A DNA stretch of 25,873 bases from a virus (lineage: Duplodnaviria; Caudoviricetes): the IMG/VR virus record IMGVR_UViG_3300006025_000047, positions 1-25,873 of that record; one strand, written 5' to 3'. The notes under the pieces were generated by a model. That model did no database searches and was not told the origin of the DNA. It saw only the letters and a list, made by a program, of their open reading frames with translations. The position numbers were made by a program, and so were the translations under genes. Positions 3,841-25,821 of the stretch are shown in pieces (within the stretch, counting starts at the first letter, position 1; every line of letters starts with the position of its first letter).

Positions 3841-5661
3841 ATGTCAGTTTTAGATAAATTAACAGAAGGTATTGTTAATCGTGATCTCCAGAAAGAAGGT
3901 GCAGCCCTACTTAACAAGTGGGAGAAAACCGGACTTCTTGAGGGACTTGACAATGACCAGAAAAAAGACGGAATGGCTCGTTTGCTTGAGAACCAAGCAA
4001 AAGAATTGCTCCGTGAGGCTTCCAGTATGGCTGGAGGTGATGTTGAAGGTTTCGCAGCAGTTGCGTTCCCAATCGTTCGCCGTGTATTCGGTTCTTTGAT
4101 CGCTAACGATCTTGTCAGCGTTCAACCAATGAGTTTGCCTTCGGGTCTCATTTTCTTCTTGGACTTCACAACAAATGGTGATATTCCAAGCCCAGCAAAG
4201 CCGGGATATCCTGATAACTCTTCCCTCTACGGTGGCGGAGTTGTTGCTAGTCAGTTGACTGGTGGTGTTTCACTCACAGGTGACAACCTTGAAAGAGGAC
4301 CATACAGTTTGAACAACGGTTTTTCAAGCCCAACTGGTTCTGAGTTGATTGATGTTTCTGTAAATCCATTATTCTTGGTTGCTTCTGGTACTGTTGGTGC
4401 TGCTGGTCCTTCTTCTAATCAGGATGACTACCCACTTACAGTTGCTGCACAGAGAACACTTGATAAACTCGTTCGTTTTGACGCAGACCTCTCTGGTTCA
4501 CAAGTTGCAGTCTTTGAAATGACAGGTACTTCTGACTTGGCGCAAATGGACTTGAGAAACTTGGTAGCAATCGGAACAAAAGATTCTACAGTTGCAGGTC
4601 AAGGTATCCTTGGTGGTCGTCTTGTTCGTCGTTTGACTGAAGTATCTACTGGTTCTGTTGGTGATGATCCTGAACTTGCGATTTTCAAACTTAAGTTGGT
4701 ATTTGAAGCAACTGGTTCACAAGTTTTGGGTAACGGAACTGATACTCCAATCGACGGAACAAACTTGCTTCACTGTGTAACTGGTGCTGACTTCACATTG
4801 AGTTTCCCAATCGATGACAACTTCAACGCAAGCAACGCTATTGGTTCTGTTGTTGGTGCTTCTGAGTGGCAACTTGAAAACCAAGCAGCAATCCCAGAAA
4901 TCGACATCAAAGTTGATTCCGTTGCTGTTACTGCTCAGACCAAGAAACTCAAGGCTAAGTGGACACCAGAATTGGGTCAAGACCTCAATGCTTACCACAA
5001 CCTTGATGCAGAAGTTGAACTTACAAGCATCCTTTCTGAGCAGATCGCTCTTGAGATCGACAGAGAGATTCTTGAAGACCTTATCAAAGGTGCTACTGCT
5101 GGAACTCAATACTGGTCCCGTCGTCCGGGCAAGTTCGTTGTAAGAGACACTGGTGCTCCAATCAGTTCTGCTGCTAACGAAGCATTGCTTGGTGCTGACT
5201 TCACTGGTACTGTTTCCGAATGGTACGAAACTCTTGCAGAAACCATCAATGATGTTTCGGCACAAATCCACAGAAAGACACTTCGTGGTGGAGCAAACTT
5301 CGTAGTTGTTTCCCCAGAAGTTGCTAACATCCTTGAGTTCACTGCTGGCTTCAGAGCAAGCGTAACTCACGATGCTGACCGTGGAACTATTGGTGCTGTT
5401 AACGTTGGTTCGTTGAGCAAGAAGTTTGATGTATACGTCGATCCTTACTTCCCAAGAAACGTTGTTCTTGTTGGACGTAAAGGTGGATCGTTCCTTGAAA
5501 GCGGATATGTATACGCACCTTATGTACCACTTCAGGTAACTCCAACCATTTTCGGTGTCGAGGACTTCGTACCTCGTAAGGGTGTTATGACCCGTTACGC
5601 TAAGAAGATGGTTAGACCTGATATGTACGGTCTTGTTATCTGTCAAGATCTTCTCGGATAA
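3841..5661 (+). CDS. gp23: Major capsid protein, T4 gp23-like (606 aa)
   Basis: Motifs LLENQ, FPIVRR, VQPMSLPSGLIF, V.AQTKKLKAKWTPELGQDL.AYH.LDAE.EL..ILSEQI.LEIDREI, YAPYVPL and PRKGVMTRY are characteristic of the gp23 family. An SD AGGAG precedes it. Confidence 0.95.
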   Translation: MSVLDKLTEGIVNRDLQKEGAALLNKWEKTGLLEGLDNDQKKDGMARLLENQAKELLREASSMAGGDVEGFAAVAFPIVRRVFGSLIANDLVSVQPMSLPSGLIFFLDFTTNGDIPSPAKPGYPDNSSLYGGGVVASQLTGGVSLTGDNLERGPYSLNNGFSSPTGSELIDVSVNPLFLVASGTVGAAGPSSNQDDYPLTVAAQRTLDKLVRFDADLSGSQVAVFEMTGTSDLAQMDLRNLVAIGTKDSTVAGQGILGGRLVRRLTEVSTGSVGDDPELAIFKLKLVFEATGSQVLGNGTDTPIDGTNLLHCVTGADFTLSFPIDDNFNASNAIGSVVGASEWQLENQAAIPEIDIKVDSVAVTAQTKKLKAKWTPELGQDLNAYHNLDAEVELTSILSEQIALEIDREILEDLIKGATAGTQYWSRRPGKFVVRDTGAPISSAANEALLGADFTGTVSEWYETLAETINDVSAQIHRKTLRGGANFVVVSPEVANILEFTAGFRASVTHDADRGTIGAVNVGSLSKKFDVYVDPYFPRNVVLVGRKGGSFLESGYVYAPYVPLQVTPTIFGVEDFVPRKGVMTRYAKKMVRPDMYGLVICQDLLG

Positions 5662-20007: not shown

Positions 20008-21465
20008 ATGACTTATAAGTTAAATGATGAAATCGTTTTTGGTATCAACTCTCTTGGATCTAAAGTCTTATTCAAGGAGAGAACAAGATATCAAGAGTTG
20101 TTTCCAACTGGGTCTACATTCCCACAAACTTTTTCTTTCTGGGAACAACAGAATCTTTTTTATGGTAGAGAAACCAATGAAAGAAATATTATATTTCCAA
20201 ATGAAACATATCTTAAAATAATACCAACAACAAAAAAAGATGTTGCTGTTTTTGGATTTGTAGCAGATGCATATCAAGATTTTCAGCAATGGATGAAAAT
20301 AAAGATAAGTAAAAAGTTTGTTGAAGATGATGCCATAACAAAACCTTGGACTGCAACAAAAGGATGGCAGAACGTTCATCAAGCACATCACGAAGCAATG
20401 GTTGCTCTTTATCAAGATTTTGCTGGAGTATATCTTGATAAAACAGGAAAGCACAAAAGCATAAAAAACTATGAAACTTTCTTAGATGTATTCTTAAATG
20501 ATCTTGTATCAAGTATGATTTCAGAAATTCCTTTTACAAAAAGCGGGTTTATAAGATCCAGTTATTTTACACCTATGATGAGTGGGCTGTGTATAGAGAT
20601 TTACAACTTAGATCATTCTGATGACTATGAGAAATATGATAAGTTTGTAAACAATATTAATTTCAAAACTTATTTGTTGGCTGCAAAGAAGTTCGGCTTT
20701 ATGGTAGATAAAAATGCTCCTTGGAGATTGATCGCCAACTTGGAATCTCCAGAAATGAGATCATATATTGCCAAGTATATGATTAGTTATCTACTACAAG
20801 GAACAACAACAACCGCATTTACAAAGCCAAATGTAGGGACAACTCATAGCCATACTTATGTTGTTGATGCTGCTGGCAATGGCTTCACAGAATATACTGA
20901 AGATCCAATGGAGCCGGGAGTTTTTCATAGGCACGAGATTAAAAACTATCAGATTATTCAAGCAGAAAGTGCAACATATGATGTATTTAATCAGGTAGGG
21001 ATAGGTCCACACGTTCACTTCTTGGGAACTGAACCAATGGAATCTTTTAATCAGAAAGACATATATGATCGCTTCTTTATTAGGGCAGATCAATATGATA
21101 TTGACGCTTTAAAAGTTTATTTAATGCAGTTCTACAATACATATGTGGCAGCATTTCCAAATGTTGCAGTTCCAAAACTTACTGCCTGTTCTCCTTCAAG
21201 TCCATTTACTGACTATGGAAACACTCAAAAAACAAAAATCATAAAAGTTTTTAGAAAAACGATTGGTCAAAAAGTCCACGACGAGAAATATAATGATTTA
21301 TTCTGGACAAAAATGTATTTTATCATTAGATTAAAAGAATTAAAAGCCAACGTTCCAGAGCCTATCTTGAACAAGAACCTTCAAAAAATAGATCAGATTT
21401 ATAAATTTGTTGACAAATCTGCCGCTTTAGAGTATATTCAGCAATACCTAAAACAATATTACTAG
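20008..21465 (+). CDS. Hypothetical protein (485 aa) with three HxH motifs
   Basis: Long ORF starting 1 nt after the hub gene. It contains HSH, HRH and HVH motifs. No family was recognised. Confidence 0.75.
   Translation: MTYKLNDEIVFGINSLGSKVLFKERTRYQELFPTGSTFPQTFSFWEQQNLFYGRETNERNIIFPNETYLKIIPTTKKDVAVFGFVADAYQDFQQWMKIKISKKFVEDDAITKPWTATKGWQNVHQAHHEAMVALYQDFAGVYLDKTGKHKSIKNYETFLDVFLNDLVSSMISEIPFTKSGFIRSSYFTPMMSGLCIEIYNLDHSDDYEKYDKFVNNINFKTYLLAAKKFGFMVDKNAPWRLIANLESPEMRSYIAKYMISYLLQGTTTTAFTKPNVGTTHSHTYVVDAAGNGFTEYTEDPMEPGVFHRHEIKNYQIIQAESATYDVFNQVGIGPHVHFLGTEPMESFNQKDIYDRFFIRADQYDIDALKVYLMQFYNTYVAAFPNVAVPKLTACSPSSPFTDYGNTQKTKIIKVFRKTIGQKVHDEKYNDLFWTKMYFIIRLKELKANVPEPILNKNLQKIDQIYKFVDKSAALEYIQQYLKQYY
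21410..21438 (+). promoter_or_regulatory. Sigma70-type promoter for the polymerase/tubulin-like genes
   Basis: TTGACA (21410-21415), a 17-nt spacer and TATATT (21433-21438), inside the 3' end of the upstream CDS. Confidence 0.7.
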
Positions 21466-21475
21466 AAGGTCAGCA

Positions 21476-22660
21476 TTGTTATTCCAAGCCCTAGACGAAA
21501 AAGAAAAATGCGTTGGTATTTATTCAGAGGGTAAAATCCTAAAAGACCTGCCCCAAGGCGGAACCCACACTTGGGAATACGCTTCCTTCCTCAAAGACCT
21601 AAACATAGAATACGCCAAGATTTATTGCGAGGGTAAAACGCTAGAACAGGCTTGTCCTCCCGAACTTAGGGAAGACTATGACCGTATCTGGAAAAAACTT
21701 AAAGCATTCTATAAGTCCTTTATAACTGCTAAGGTTTCTCTAAACGACCATTGCTTCTTTGATCTTGTCCCAGAAGGCTTCCTAAAAGAATACTGTGTTC
21801 TCAAAAACAAGATTACACAGCACGTTATTGATACACACAAGCGACCAGACAACTACGACAACTTGCTTCACATTACAAAACTGGTAACTGAAATCAAACA
21901 ACAGAAACTAAACATAGACTTGTCTGTTCTAAACAACGACTTGGCTGACCCAAGAACAAAAGAGTTCTACAAAAAGATAATGAAAACAGAGCCTTACATA
22001 AAGTATAATCCTTTTGGAACAAAGACAGGAAGGCTCACAACCCAGAAGAACTCTTTCCCAATCCTCACTATGGATAAGAAGTTCAGGAAAGTAATCAAGC
22101 CAACGAACAACTGGTTTGTTGAGTTTGACTACAACGCAGCAGAAGTCCGTGTCCTACTGGGTCTTCTCGGCGTAGAGCAACCACACATAGACATTCACGA
22201 CTACAACTCCTATGAACTCTTTGACGGCAAACTAACCAGAGAAGAATCAAAGAAGAGGATTTTTTCGTGGCTTTACAATCCAAATGCCGAGGACAAGGAA
22301 CTATCCAAACTCTACAATAGAGAGCGTATCAAAGAAATGTTTTGGGACGGTAAGTATGTAAAAACCTTATTCCACCGAAAGATAGAAGCAGACGAGTATC
22401 ACTCTGTTAACTACATAATACAAAGCACTTGTAGCGATATGATTTTAGACAAGGCTATTTTGATAAATGATTTGTTGAAGGGTAAGAAAACTAAAATAGC
22501 ATTTATCATTCACGACAGTATTGTGCTAGACTATTCCGACGAAGATGGGGATTTTATCAACTCAATCTACTGGGAGTTTATGGGAACACCGTTTGGTGTA
22601 TTCAAAACAAATGTGTCTGCTGGAAAGAACTTTGGAGAAATGAGCGGTTTATGGATATAA
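21476..22660 (+). CDS. polA: Minimal family-A DNA polymerase (394 aa)
   Basis: Contains GTKTGRLTT, motif A FDYNAAEVRVL, motif B REESKKRIFSWLY, NYIIQSTCSD and motif C IIHDSIVLD. The start codon is TTG. Confidence 0.85.
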   Translation: MLFQALDEKEKCVGIYSEGKILKDLPQGGTHTWEYASFLKDLNIEYAKIYCEGKTLEQACPPELREDYDRIWKKLKAFYKSFITAKVSLNDHCFFDLVPEGFLKEYCVLKNKITQHVIDTHKRPDNYDNLLHITKLVTEIKQQKLNIDLSVLNNDLADPRTKEFYKKIMKTEPYIKYNPFGTKTGRLTTQKNSFPILTMDKKFRKVIKPTNNWFVEFDYNAAEVRVLLGLLGVEQPHIDIHDYNSYELFDGKLTREESKKRIFSWLYNPNAEDKELSKLYNRERIKEMFWDGKYVKTLFHRKIEADEYHSVNYIIQSTCSDMILDKAILINDLLKGKKTKIAFIIHDSIVLDYSDEDGDFINSIYWEFMGTPFGVFKTNVSAGKNFGEMSGLWI

Positions 22661-23490
22661 TAATTGGACTGGGCAACGTAGGCTATAAAATAGGCAAAGC
22701 CTTTTCGCAACACCCACAATACAAAGTAATCACTATTGACCACGAAGAAAGCGCAGACATTCGTGTGCCTAAGTATGACCACCCTGAGAAATACGAAGAG
22801 AACTTTCCACTAATCGCAAACCAACTGCGAGACGTTGAAGGCGAGATCCTCTTTGTTATTTCAGGAGCCAGCATTATTTCAGGCGCAGCCCTTCGTGTTC
22901 TAGAACAAATCCACGGCAAAGGACCAATAAGCATTCTTTACATTCACCCAGACGTAGATACCTTGTCTCAGACAAGAAGACTGCAAACAAACTTGGTATT
23001 TGGTGTTTTGCAGCATTACGCAAGGTCAGGCGTTTTCAAGCAGTTCTATGCGATTGATAACCAACAGATAGACAAAATCTTAGGTGGAGCACCGATTATG
23101 GGCTATTACGATAGATTGAATGAAGTTATTGTCGCAACGATACATATGACTAACATTTTCAATCATTCAGAGCCAGTCGTTGGAACTCTGTCTGACCCAA
23201 AAGATATCTGCCGTATCTCAACTTTCGGCATTCTAAATCCAGAAACAGGCGACGAAAGCCCGTTTTTTTCTCTTGACAATGTTGTGGAGAAGCGTTATTA
23301 TTACGCCATTCCCGAAGAGGAACTAAAAACTGATAAGACTTTGATGAGTAAGATTATGAGCCAAGTGAAAGATTCGCCACAGGAAAAAGACGTAAAAGTT
23401 TCCTACGGCGTATTTCCAACCCAATACGCCGATAAATACGCTTATTTCATCGCAAGTACTTCAGAAATACAAAATGAAAAAAATGCTTGA
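22651..23490 (+). CDS. Divergent tubulin/FtsZ-superfamily protein (279 aa)
   Basis: IIGLGNVGYKIG (T1-like loop), VITID, LFVISGASIISGA (degenerate T4 loop), LYIHP, AIDN, YDRLNEVI and GTLSDPKD occur in the order expected for the tubulin GTPase fold. It overlaps polA by 10 nt. Confidence 0.7.
   Translation: MDIIIGLGNVGYKIGKAFSQHPQYKVITIDHEESADIRVPKYDHPEKYEENFPLIANQLRDVEGEILFVISGASIISGAALRVLEQIHGKGPISILYIHPDVDTLSQTRRLQTNLVFGVLQHYARSGVFKQFYAIDNQQIDKILGGAPIMGYYDRLNEVIVATIHMTNIFNHSEPVVGTLSDPKDICRISTFGILNPETGDESPFFSLDNVVEKRYYYAIPEEELKTDKTLMSKIMSQVKDSPQEKDVKVSYGVFPTQYADKYAYFIASTSEIQNEKNA
23273..23301 (+). promoter_or_regulatory. Possible internal sigma70-type promoter inside the tubulin-like gene
   Basis: TTGACA (23273-23278), a 17-nt spacer and TATTAT (23296-23301), preceded by a T-rich tract. 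Confidence 0.5.
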
Positions 23491-23515
23491 CATTCAATTT
23501 TAGTTAGTGTATAGT
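23487..23515 (+). promoter_or_regulatory. Sigma70-type promoter upstream of SSB gene
   Basis: TTGACA (23487-23492), a 17-nt spacer and TATAGT (23510-23515). An A-tract lies upstream and an SD AAGGAG downstream. Confidence 0.75.
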
Positions 23516-23543: not shown

Positions 23544-24299
23544 ATGGCTATTAATCTTGATAAAATGAAAGAGAAACTTGCTTCTGCCCAAGGGAAAGGA
23601 GGTCAGAAGAAATCTGAGTTCTGGCGTCCCCAAGACGGAGAGAATGTAATCCGCATCCTTCCGTCCCCAGACGAAGATCCCTTTAAGGAGCATCACTTCC
23701 ACTACAACCTTGGAAGCCAATCTGGTTTCCTCTGCCCGAAGCGTAACTTTGGGGACGATTGCCCTGTATGCAACTTTGCAACCAAACTCTTCAACGAGGG
23801 TTCGCAAGAGAGCATTCAGCAAGCAAAAAGCCTCTTTGCTCGCCAACGCTTCTTCTCGCCTGTTCTTGTTCGAGGACAAGAAGCCGAAGGTGTTAAAGTC
23901 TGGGGATACGGTAAGACCGTCTATGAAACCCTCCTCAGTCTGGTTCTGAACCCAGACTACGGTGATATCACTGACCCAGACGAAGGAACAGATCTGGTCC
24001 TGTCTTACGGTAAGGCTCCCGGTATGCTTTATCCACAGACGAAAGTCCAGCCACGACGTAAATCCTCCCCATTGTGCGATGATGGCGATGAGGCTTGTCA
24101 GGAGATTGTCGAGGCAGTCCCAGATCTGGATACACTCTTCGAGCGTAAGTCCACTCAGGATGTGCAAGACATTCTGGATGAGTTCCTCAACTCTGATGTG
24201 AATGCAGAGGACGCTTCCTCTGAAACCACAAAGTATGCCTCTACCACGAGCGAGGCATCTAATGATGTTGAGGCTGCTCTTCGAGAACTCGCAGGCTAA
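23544..24299 (+). CDS. gp32: Single-stranded DNA-binding protein, T4 gp32-like
   Basis: Contains FWRP..GENVIRILP, a His/Cys zinc site (HY...CPK...CPVC), VKVWGYGK.VY, DITDP.EG.D and an acidic C-terminal tail. Confidence 0.85.
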   Translation: MAINLDKMKEKLASAQGKGGQKKSEFWRPQDGENVIRILPSPDEDPFKEHHFHYNLGSQSGFLCPKRNFGDDCPVCNFATKLFNEGSQESIQQAKSLFARQRFFSPVLVRGQEAEGVKVWGYGKTVYETLLSLVLNPDYGDITDPDEGTDLVLSYGKAPGMLYPQTKVQPRRKSSPLCDDGDEACQEIVEAVPDLDTLFERKSTQDVQDILDEFLNSDVNAEDASSETTKYASTTSEASNDVEAALRELAG

Positions 24300-24344: not shown

Positions 24345-25445
24345 ATGGCTAAAGCAGGTAAACTGTCTATGGCAGATATGCGAAAACTCATTAATAAGAG
24401 GGCTGGCATGACCGTAGCACACAACCTAAGTGAAGAGAATCCAACCGAGGTTAATGATTGGATTCCAACAGGGTCTAGGTGGCTAGATTCTATTATTTGT
24501 AAAGGACAACTGGCTGGCATTCCAGTCGGCAAAGTAACGGAGATCGCAGGTCTAGAAGCAACAGGTAAGTCATTCTTGGCAGCACAAGTAGCAGCCAACG
24601 CACAGAAGAAGGGAATTGATGTCATCTATTTCGATTCTGAATCTGCTATTGACCCTGCTTTCTTGGAGAGGGCTGGATGCGATGTTGATACTATTCTATA
24701 TGTTCAGGCTCAGTCTGTTGAGTTTGTATTGGAAACTATCGAAGACCTTTTGGCTAACAATGAAAATCGTATGCTTTTCATTTGGGATTCTCTTGCTCTT
24801 ACACCTGCTATTTCCGATGTGGAAGGAGACTTTAATCCACAGTCTTCAATGGCAGTAAAAGCAAGAATCTTGGCTAAAGGTATGTCCAAGTTGACTGTGC
24901 CGATTGCTAACAGCCAATCAACCTTCTTGGTGCTAAACCAGTTGAAGACTAACATTACCAGTTCGCCTTCAGAGGCTTTGACCACTCCCTATGTAACTCC
25001 GGGTGGTAAGGCTATGCACTATGCTTATTCTCTGCGTATCTGGCTGACAGGTCGCAAGGCAAAGGCTGCTTACATTACTGATGAAAGCGGTTTTCGTATT
25101 GGCTCTGAGGTCAAGGTCAAGTTGGAGAAAAGCAGGTTTGGAACACAAGGTCGGCAATGCAACTTCAAAATCTTGTGGGGAACTGAGGGTGTCGGTGTCC
25201 AAGACGACCAAAGTCTATTTGAAGCAGTCAAAGGCTCAAAGTATATGAGTTCTGCTGGTGCTTGGTATTCTTTGGAAATGGGCGACGGCAAAGTAGAAAA
25301 GTTCCAGCCTTCTAAATGGGAAGACAAAATGCAAGACCAAGCCTTCAAGCAGCGTGTCTATGACATTATGGACGAAGAAGTAATCAAAAAGTTTGACCAG
25401 CGACTTGGCAACGCTTCAGATTTTTATGAAGAAAATGATGAATAA
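24345..25445 (+). CDS. recA: RecA/UvsX-family recombinase
   Basis: Contains IPTGS..LD, GIPVGKVTEIAG, Walker A GLEATGKS, YFDSE, Walker B FIWDS, LNQL and TPGGKAMHYAYSLRI. An SD AGGAG precedes it. Confidence 0.95.
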   Translation: MAKAGKLSMADMRKLINKRAGMTVAHNLSEENPTEVNDWIPTGSRWLDSIICKGQLAGIPVGKVTEIAGLEATGKSFLAAQVAANAQKKGIDVIYFDSESAIDPAFLERAGCDVDTILYVQAQSVEFVLETIEDLLANNENRMLFIWDSLALTPAISDVEGDFNPQSSMAVKARILAKGMSKLTVPIANSQSTFLVLNQLKTNITSSPSEALTTPYVTPGGKAMHYAYSLRIWLTGRKAKAAYITDESGFRIGSEVKVKLEKSRFGTQGRQCNFKILWGTEGVGVQDDQSLFEAVKGSKYMSSAGAWYSLEMGDGKVEKFQPSKWEDKMQDQAFKQRVYDIMDEEVIKKFDQRLGNASDFYEENDE

Positions 25446-25490
25446 ATAATTAAACCCTTCGTCTAATAAAGGAACGGAGGTTTTAGTTAT
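25446..25490 (+). promoter_or_regulatory. RNA hairpin sequestering the SD and start codon of the downstream lipoprotein gene
   Basis: ATAATTAAACCCTTCGT (25446-25462) pairs with ACGGAGGTTTTAGTTAT (25474-25490) at 16 of 17 positions, including two G-U pairs. Confidence 0.65.
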
Positions 25491-25821
25491 GAAGAAAATC
25501 ATTATTACAAGTTTATTTCTCGTCCTTTTGTCTGGCTGCGCTTTTGCCCACCCAACAGTCAAAGTCCACAATCCACACTATGAATGTGAAGAATACTATG
25601 TAATAGGTTATTCTCCATACTACTATGTCTACTATGATTATGACCATCACTACCACAGCAGTTATCACTATGGTCACAAGCATCACTACAAAAAGAAAGG
25701 GCACAAGCACCACTACAAGAACAAGTTTGGGAAGAAGCATTACAAAAAGAAGTATGTAAAAAAGCACTACCCAAAGAAAACCGTCCAAAAGAAAAAGAAA
25801 AAATACTCCCACCACCACTAA
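25489..25821 (+). CDS. Putative His/Tyr/Lys-rich lipoprotein (110 aa)
   Basis: An SD GGAGG precedes it. The signal peptide MKKIIITSLFLVLLSGC has a canonical lipobox LSG-C, and the mature part is low-complexity with KHHYK/KKHYK repeats. Confidence 0.7.
   Translation: MKKIIITSLFLVLLSGCAFAHPTVKVHNPHYECEEYYVIGYSPYYYVYYDYDHHYHSSYHYGHKHHYKKKGHKHHYKNKFGKKHYKKKYVKKHYPKKTVQKKKKKYSHHH

Follow-up and report, generated by a model that had tools for sequence, protein, structure and literature searches.

The locus and the predicted fold of its product

We examined a stretch of viral DNA of 25,873 nucleotides (nt), hereafter the window, which is IMG/VR record IMGVR_UViG_3300006025_000047, a 25.9 kb virus record estimated to be 14% complete. 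Library scans identify in it genes for gp23-type capsid, sheath, tube, baseplate and tape-measure proteins, followed by a family A DNA polymerase (PolA), the gene that is our subject, a gp32-like single-stranded DNA binding protein (SSB) and RecA. The gene in question, an open reading frame (ORF) at 22651..23490 on the plus strand, encodes a protein of 279 amino acids (aa), P0001, with no N- or C-terminal extension, and the ORF, an AlphaFold2 (AF2) model and structure comparisons with Foldseek and VIA mark it as a minimal protein of predicted tubulin/FtsZ fold. The ORF and all six peptides quoted in the original prediction, which had been made from the sequence, were found at their positions in the 279-aa translation. 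The ORF is a real gene, since the ratio of nonsynonymous to synonymous substitution rates (dN/dS) is about 0.04-0.14 in eight of ten locus pairs (the other two are saturated), indicating purifying selection. The phage had been described as T4-like; its capsid protein is nearer to those of Flavobacterium phage immuto (50%), Microcystis phage Mel-JY01 (47%) and Rhodothermus RM378 (40%), the best cultured matches, than to those of T4-like cyanophages (33%), and the group is better put as Far-T4-like, a label taken from capsid matches and not from a tree. The sequencing runs that hold the stretch carry the labels freshwater or aquatic metagenomes, and Tara data are the source of some homologues.

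Going by predicted structure, P0001 almost certainly has the tubulin/FtsZ fold over its whole length. The AF2 model, built on a 54-sequence alignment, has a predicted local distance difference test score (pLDDT) of 91.6 and a predicted template modelling score (pTM) of 0.91, and all matches listed by Foldseek against the PDB are FtsZ or tubulin (best E 1.8e-11, TMq 0.59-0.74). Re-comparison with VIA, which covered 718 of Foldseek's top 1000 chains, gave Z scores of 24.0 and 23.8 for CetZ, 23.1 for TubZ, 22.1 for FtsZ and 21.4 for tubulin, a near tie among the four as structural neighbours; 256-275 residues align, spanning positions 1-279 of the model, at a root-mean-square deviation of 2.7-3.7. 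A second member, P0229 (33% identical to P0001), modelled on 136 diverse sequences, has a pLDDT of 96.4 and the same topology, and FtsZ matches again head its Foldseek results (best E 1.7e-12). Identity of the family models to their FtsZ and tubulin matches is about 10-15%. Both models are predicted to share the two-domain layout of an N-terminal GTP-binding domain, helix H7 and a C-terminal alpha/beta domain. Against the viral structure library BFVD, the top nine matches are FtsZ, tubulin, PhuZ or unnamed, with Rossmann enzymes ranking behind, and the Noxifer PhuZ is matched at E 1.4e-5. Profile alignment of 140 family sequences with 17 FtsZs by hhalign gave a probability of 80% (E 1.4e-5). 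Viral clusters in the ESM Atlas, one of them auto-named Tubulin/FtsZ, and PF00091 clusters at 0.86 provide a lead only. The suggestion that P0001 belongs to a divergent branch of the tubulin superfamily is thus borne out by two models and by Foldseek and VIA over the full length.

Searches of PDB sequences with phmmer and with a profile returned no match naming P0001; scans of Pfam, PHROGs and NCBIfam left it unnamed, with no match in PHROGs and none near the cut-off in NCBIfam. The PF00091 profile has no match in the protein's own genome, and hhalign of the family against six PhuZs was mis-registered and uninformative (E 0.006). The original prediction had named a plain Rossmann domain lacking the tubulin C-terminal domain as the outcome that would count against it, and some sequence matches do point to an ordinary NAD(P)-binding protein of the TrkA-N or dehydrogenase type, with the tubulin likeness arising by chance. 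The best Pfam match of P0001 is TrkA_N (aa 3-33, E 0.0015, below cut-off), the best PDB sequence match of the family profile is KtrA (positions 3-87), and at E≤0.05 TrkA_N is matched by 9 of 136 members against 4 of 136 for Tubulin. These matches span only the first beta-alpha unit, however, and both models align to FtsZ and tubulin over their full length, C-terminal domain included. A dinucleotide-binding Rossmann identity, for which no whole-domain match was found, is refuted at the level of predicted structure, and we regard it as extremely improbable.

The family is large. Searches with phmmer recovered 571 clusters at 50% identity with E≤0.001, of which 199 reach 1e-30, and none of the 150 matches listed is longer than 300 aa; among 7,992 scored candidates no longer, fused form was found, which is weak evidence. 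One 9-residue signature pattern finds a relative in 594 of 600 IMG/VR stretches, and about 1,900 are estimated overall. The gene is single-copy in all five Far-T4-like genomes of 92-100% completeness (168-190 kb). A tblastn search of 50,697 cultured phage records at E≤1 gave no match to P0001, and E. coli FtsZ as a query against IMG/VR gave no match. A cellular origin was considered and rejected: only 3 of 91 pattern matches in 185,579 species genomes were relatives. Because all three lie in phage gene order and one is fenced by N runs, we treat them as phage DNA binned in error, from which no host can be read. A phage fragment of the family lies between N runs inside the chromosome CP070664.1 of a WOR-3 metagenome-assembled genome (L086:7500-12900), probably an assembly contaminant. 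This large phage family, unnamed by Pfam, PHROGs and NCBIfam, is best treated as a family of its own within the tubulin superfamily.

The nucleotide site and a predicted surface patch of invariant residues

Motifs were counted in P0001 and 139 of the 150 listed representatives (140 sequences; 11 fragments or sequences with X were dropped), with 17 FtsZs and six PhuZs as controls. The roles of FtsZ residues T108, G109, N165, N186, D209 and D212 we take to be established, and their numbering was checked on the FtsZ sequence. Five of the six motifs that had been called in P0001 (T1, T2, T4, T6 and H7) map to FtsZ landmarks by hhalign. By alignment of the 140 representatives, the T1 glycine loop (aa 6-11; 22666..22683, plus strand) is present in 136, with G8 conserved at 99%, G6 at 86% and G11 at 83%; the family consensus is G-L-G-x-A-G-C-N-I-A, of which P0001 has a less canonical copy. 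Asp30 of T2 is conserved at 71%. The guanine-contact asparagines, N137 (E. coli FtsZ N165, in T6) and N157 (N186, in H7) by profile alignment, occur in 113/140 and 117/140, respectively, and both are present in P0001. Alignment and covariation place N137, the H6-H7 loop (145-151, the predicted top filament face) and the H7 start with Y152, Y153 and N157 (the guanine pocket) at 23059..23121 (plus strand).

The phosphate-binding loops are altered throughout the family. A GAG-type T3 loop, reported as missing from P0001, is found in only 1/140; in the remodelled T3/H3 start (aa 40-49; 22768..22797, plus strand; same alignment) the glycines have given way to E46-x-Y48-E49 in 117/140, with Tyr at the FtsZ G77 position. 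The T4 loop (aa 72-78; 22864..22884, plus strand) is degenerate and two residues shorter than in FtsZ, the register being G72 = G103, a two-residue deletion, S74 = G107, I75 = T108, I76 = G109, S77 = T110 and G78 = G111. Neither a strict nor a relaxed form of GGGTG(S/T)G occurs in any of the 140 sequences, against 17/17 FtsZs; among the PhuZs the strict form is found in 0/6 and the relaxed form in 3/6. Thr is retained at the T108 position in 10/140, and the G109 position is never Gly and is I, V, L or M in 110/140.

The sixth call, GTLSDPKD as a T7 loop, did not hold up. The resemblance is incidental: D182 and D185 are both Asp in 5/140 and both acidic in 39/140. D-x-x-D anywhere in 171-188 occurs in 13/140, compared with 16/17 FtsZs and 6/6 PhuZs, the FtsZ-type pattern [ND]-x-D-x-x-[DE] occurs in 3/140, and 13/140 have no acid whatever in 174-187. 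The spacing from N157 to G193 is 36 residues in 130/140, against 40 in FtsZ. Helix H8 is absent from both models, which have no helix between H7 and S7; the segment that replaces T7 and H8 (aa 172-188; 23164..23214, plus strand) is an extended coil in both (pLDDT 90-98) and has no fixed acidic residue. The tail after Q274 has a median length of 3.5 residues and at most 17, and the P0001 model stops about nine residues past its last strand. From these motif counts, the family very probably lacks canonical GTPase activity. Altered or lost GTPase activity had been proposed for P0001, and the family-wide motif loss agrees with that proposal; the reason differs, in that the T7 look-alike is not conserved and H8 is absent from both models.

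The most invariant residues lie mainly outside these loops in a feature of the family's own: Q121 (99%), R125 (97%), S126 (96%) and Q274 (96%), together with L81, G8 and G72. Relative to FtsZ, the sequence Q-E-Y-A-R-S-G corresponds to a five-residue insertion at the end of H5 (hhalign). Couplings G127-R188, H122-N275, Q131-S190 and Q131-S269 gather this H5-end motif with the start of S7 and the C-terminus. Conservation and covariation therefore define a family signature (Q121, Y123, R125, S126, G127; 23011..23031, plus strand) that is predicted to form a surface patch with R188 and Q274. In tubulin and TubZ, C-terminal helices cover the region of this patch; because these helices are missing here, we infer that Q121/R125/S126/R188/Q274 form an exposed docking site.

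Part of the family appears to have dispensed with the guanine pocket itself, to judge from the alignment, although P0001 keeps its own. Both N137 and N157 are lost in 46 of 588 distinct sequences (weighted, 12% against 2.1% if the losses were independent). Position 74 is D or E in 42 of these 46 pocket-dead members, compared with 17 of the 542 others. On a FastTree tree, pocket loss affects 27 of 224 representatives and takes 15 parsimony steps, against 25.8 when shuffled. Q121/R125/S126 are kept in 45 of the 46, and therefore the patch is not conserved for GTP chemistry.

Covariation and gene neighbourhood

Mean-field direct coupling analysis (DCA) of 588 sequences (effective number, Meff, 360) recovers the expected intramolecular contacts. 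Pairs between the top and bottom faces form one cluster, 146-150 against 225-231, comprising I149-L225, P148-K229, G146-K229 and P148-T227 (z 4.6-6.0). The cluster persists at another weighting and in both random halves of the alignment. When 258 pocket-retaining representatives were re-aligned, four cluster pairs fell in the top 134 (ranks 30, 34, 54 and 70), where 0.28 would be expected. Couplings F170-A219, M166-Y259 and E224-K262 anchor 219-231 at the C-terminal end of the 20-residue H7, about 25-30 Å from residue 149 as estimated by helix length. Because of this distance, the cluster is read as an intermolecular contact, by helix geometry and FtsZ precedent. A matching contact is described for E. 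coli FtsZ filaments in part of PMC7010359, where the H6-H7 loop meets R271 and L272 on the adjacent subunit; I149 aligns with FtsZ L178 (hhalign). The S8-H10 loop (aa 224-233; 23320..23349, plus strand), which covaries with the H6-H7 loop by DCA, would thus be the bottom filament face.

With this top- and bottom-face covariation as the main evidence, the family probably self-assembles head to tail. According to passages of PMC3678025, the canonical interface includes T7, S9 and the base of H8; therefore the interface in this family must be remodelled. The T7 mutant D198A of PhuZ-RAY, which is hydrolysis-dead, still forms filaments at all expression levels in the portion of PMC10299810 that describes it.

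The gene neighbourhood was compared across 310 loci, which encode 241 distinct proteins. Of the 215 proteins whose upstream side could be assessed, 175 have PolA as the immediately preceding gene, which overlaps the tubulin-like gene in 155; PolA is 250-375 nt upstream in 30, further away in 5 and not seen in 5. On the downstream side, SSB is found within 1 kb in 196/200. In the window, PolA (21476..22660, plus strand) is a minimal family A polymerase of 394 aa with motifs A, B and C conserved by library scans and alignment, and it overlaps the tubulin-like start by 10 nt. Downstream, library scans place the gp32-like SSB at 23544..24299 and a RecA/UvsX recombinase at 24345..25445 (both plus strand). 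By pattern match, a sigma-70-like promoter (11/12 match) stands before the PolA-tubulin pair at 21410..21438 and another (11/12) at the tubulin stop codon, before SSB, at 23487..23515 (both plus strand). In the first, non-deduplicated set of loci, the pattern occurs upstream of PolA in 93/134 and of SSB in 129/152, compared with 340/4860 random windows. Because one promoter precedes PolA and another precedes SSB, it is likely that PolA and the tubulin-like gene make up an early unit of two genes. The polymerase, with a median of 396 aa in 140 loci, keeps D218, E223, R255, K259, F263 and D347 in at least 93% of 116 sequences; it has no conserved exonuclease acid set, and relatives carry a separate 5'-3' exonuclease downstream. 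RNA contigs of three runs touch PolA, SSB and RecA and not the tubulin-like gene, which at this low depth is no evidence either way.

Several further features of these loci were recorded. One RNA-run contig (window 23522-23905) starts 7 nt past the -10 box of the predicted SSB promoter, a hint only, as contigs cannot show starts. In one part of the family (about 30 loci, as at L227:2465-2776), a gene of about 103 aa sits in the PolA-tubulin gap, with a similar protein in 8 of 10 inspected; it has no PHROG match, and we presume it to be MazG/nucleotide-pyrophosphatase-like. Phages immuto and Mel-JY01 share an unannotated 150-aa gene directly after PolA, in the slot of the tubulin-like gene (L083:1346-1801 and L082:3813-4256); the idea that it is a remnant of the tubulin C-terminal domain was rejected (hhalign E 0.24). 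Just upstream of PolA in nearly all loci is a conserved protein of variable length (376-680 aa), in the window a 485-aa product (20008-21465) with no match in Pfam, PHROGs or NCBIfam. Relatives also encode, in their downstream module, a B12-type ribonucleotide reductase together with a GroES-like protein (L011:13761-16253). Elsewhere in the window, 25489-25821 encodes a small predicted lipoprotein with a low-complexity tail rich in His, Tyr and Lys and a weak match to a Cor superinfection-exclusion PHROG (E 3e-4); the 606-aa gp23-type capsid protein (3841-5661) matches its relatives in two pieces, which implies a large internal insertion; and the product of 24-2381 is tail-fibre-like, has many internal repeats and ends in an S74 chaperone domain at the C-terminus.

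Candidate functions and relation to known tubulins

We tentatively propose that this minimal tubulin-fold protein forms a non-hydrolysing, static head-to-tail filament, possibly a replication scaffold made early with the phage polymerase. The scaffold role, which comes from gene context, is a slightly more tentative part of this proposal. The gene would be co-expressed early with PolA. The pocket would hold a guanine nucleotide structurally, and in pocket-dead lineages an Asp or Glu may take the phosphate position. Subunits are predicted to stack with the H6-H7 loop of one against the S8-H10 loop of the next, in a filament that would remain static for want of GTP hydrolysis. The invariant patch could then dock a partner along the filament, and that partner may be a replication component.

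A number of observations weigh against this proposal. Loss of T7 and H8 could abolish polymerisation. The intermolecular claim rests on helix geometry and FtsZ precedent, and the models have a short extra helix (222-227) in that region; the covarying pairs rank in the middle range (30-110), the two random halves are related by descent, and couplings of T5 and T3 to the bottom face are weak and unstable. Acids are preferred at 182 (66/140) and 185 (78/140), [DE]-x-x-[DE] occurring there in 58/140 against a shuffled mean of 33, and a vestige of T7 at these positions could persist. In at least 30 members an inserted gene separates PolA from the tubulin-like gene, and immuto and Mel-JY01 have the same PolA-SSB-RecA-exonuclease-helicase module with no match to the tubulin-like gene. 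Covariation of the tubulin-like protein with PolA is not PolA-specific, with 1.97 pairs of z>5 per 10,000 for PolA and 2.13 for SSB, at low power (Meff 123). Finally, early operons also hold host-takeover genes.

Another reading is a host-division inhibitor, a tubulin mimic whose partly intact nucleotide face and dead T7 face would cap or poison host FtsZ and stop division of the infected cell. Its half-functional anatomy (T1, N137 and N157 kept, T7 and H8 lost) would fit such a role, the host-type sigma-70 promoter implies early expression, and phage division inhibitors are known, namely lambda Kil, P1 Icd and SPO1 gp56 in the sources as far as available. However, a pure heteromeric cap would not need its top and bottom faces to covary within the family, identity to FtsZ is only 10-14%, and one element of the top face, the T3 loop, has been remodelled. 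Members with a dead pocket survive, and a fixed place in a core replication module would be unlike that of the usual variable host-takeover genes. Interference with host FtsZ, which the original prediction had raised, thus drew no evidence here, covariation pointing to self-assembly instead, and we consider it quite unlikely. Somewhat less unlikely is a non-polymerising accessory factor of the minimal PolA (a processivity or loading subunit, or a dimer) that uses the tubulin fold as a binding module. The translational overlap in 155/215 and the shared promoter agree with it, as do a polymerase of only about 396 aa with intact catalytic motifs, the loss of H8, T7 and tail, and another small gene in the same slot of cultured relatives. 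The covariation figures given above speak against it, with their low power, and a mirror-tree comparison likewise has no PolA-specific signal (r 0.81 with PolA, 0.84 with SSB). Longitudinal-type couplings favour open head-to-tail stacking, and insertions part the two genes in 35/215; from the inserted gene and the cultured relatives' module it follows that the protein is not an obligatory polymerase subunit.

A filament might instead be dynamic, a DNA positioner like PhuZ or TubZ whose GTPase uses a new catalytic set (for example Q121, R125, H165 or N168 in trans) or an external activator. Q121, R125 and S126 are conserved at levels that look like enzyme invariants, H165 and N168 (74% each) lie at the T7 start, each guanine Asn is kept in about 85% (weighted) with covarying pocket residues, and the T4 motif is also relaxed in PhuZ. 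Yet the first three residues are the ones retained by nearly all pocket-dead members, PhuZ has kept D-x-x-D throughout, and the cis contacts to the gamma-phosphate (T3 glycines, T4 Thr) have gone too. We regard a dynamic filament as improbable, to about the same degree as the FtsZ inhibitor, and retain the static filament as our working proposal.

We found no description of this tubulin-like family in the literature covered, which did not extend to supplements and subscription journals. The main text of the Far-T4 paper (PMC4360716) contains no occurrence of tubulin or FtsZ; its supplements could list this gene. [quoted passage not shown] With the present family, their range would reach past nucleus-forming jumbo phages and partition cassettes and take in a common uncultured group, in which the three profile libraries leave the gene unnamed. 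In characterised filaments of tubulin, FtsZ, TubZ and PhuZ, assembly is coupled through T7 to the hydrolysis of GTP. Here, hundreds of diverse sequences have dropped T7 chemistry, and some also the nucleotide pocket, under purifying selection and with the filament interface apparently kept, a natural series for asking what the tubulin fold does without its motor. In its full form, the idea is that phages of a widespread aquatic lineage converted tubulin to a filament that is independent of nucleotide and not dynamic, a core replication part that docks replisome proteins via a new invariant surface, with an acidic residue plugging the GTP pocket in some lineages; we hold this to be doubtful as a whole. 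If true, no polymer of the tubulin superfamily would be smaller, and nature would have supplied a test of whether assembly of the fold depends on GTP.

Among known systems, archaeal CetZ (3zid, 4b45, 4b46) has the highest VIA Z scores (24.0, 23.8 and 22.4; 256-260 residues aligned), less than one Z unit above TubZ and thus tied with it. Identity to CetZ is 13-17%, too low for a reliable tree, and the family, which is viral and not archaeal, lacks the T4 signature and the T7 acid and is 50-60 residues shorter than the solved CetZ chains. TubZ of Bacillus plasmids (4ei7, 2xka, 3m89; Z 22-23, up to 275 residues aligned) is likewise the product of a mobile-replicon gene and forms head-to-tail filaments of the kind predicted here. 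Unlike TubZ, which recruits cofactors through its C-terminal tail (PMC3678025, in part), the family has no H11, C-terminal tail or T7 acid, and its immediate neighbours are PolA and SSB, not a partition cassette. PhuZ of nucleus-forming jumbo phages is also a phage tubulin with a relaxed T4 and a structural match in BFVD. However, PhuZ has D-x-x-D (6/6) and a C-terminal knuckle that it needs to polymerise, again by passages of PMC3678025, and the family has neither and keeps H6; the phiKZ shell protein (chimallin), a single query run with no positive control, matched none of the five 168-190 kb genomes.

FtsZ provides the top Foldseek matches, and T1, the T6 Asn, the H7 Asn and the L178-type top-face residue align with it. 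The family differs from FtsZ in lacking GGGTG(S/T)G, a GAG T3, N-x-D-x-x-D, H8, the linker and the C-terminal peptide, and in carrying its signature on the five-residue insertion at the H5 end. It resembles FtsZl1 (Makarova and Koonin 2010, PMC2875224, as far as that text was available) in its divergence and in that some filament-forming elements are not identifiable. FtsZl1, however, retains the T4 signature, bears long coiled-coil extensions and belongs to cellular vWA operons, whereas in this family T4 is gone and the C-terminal domain is still present. A functional analogue only is AlpC of prophage CGP3: the sections seen of PMC4446434 link this phage cytoskeletal protein to the replication of viral DNA, but its actin fold is unrelated. 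By its proposed action the family would be a tubulin-superfamily polymer, and since it lacks features that define FtsZ, PhuZ and TubZ, it is best placed beside them in its own right.

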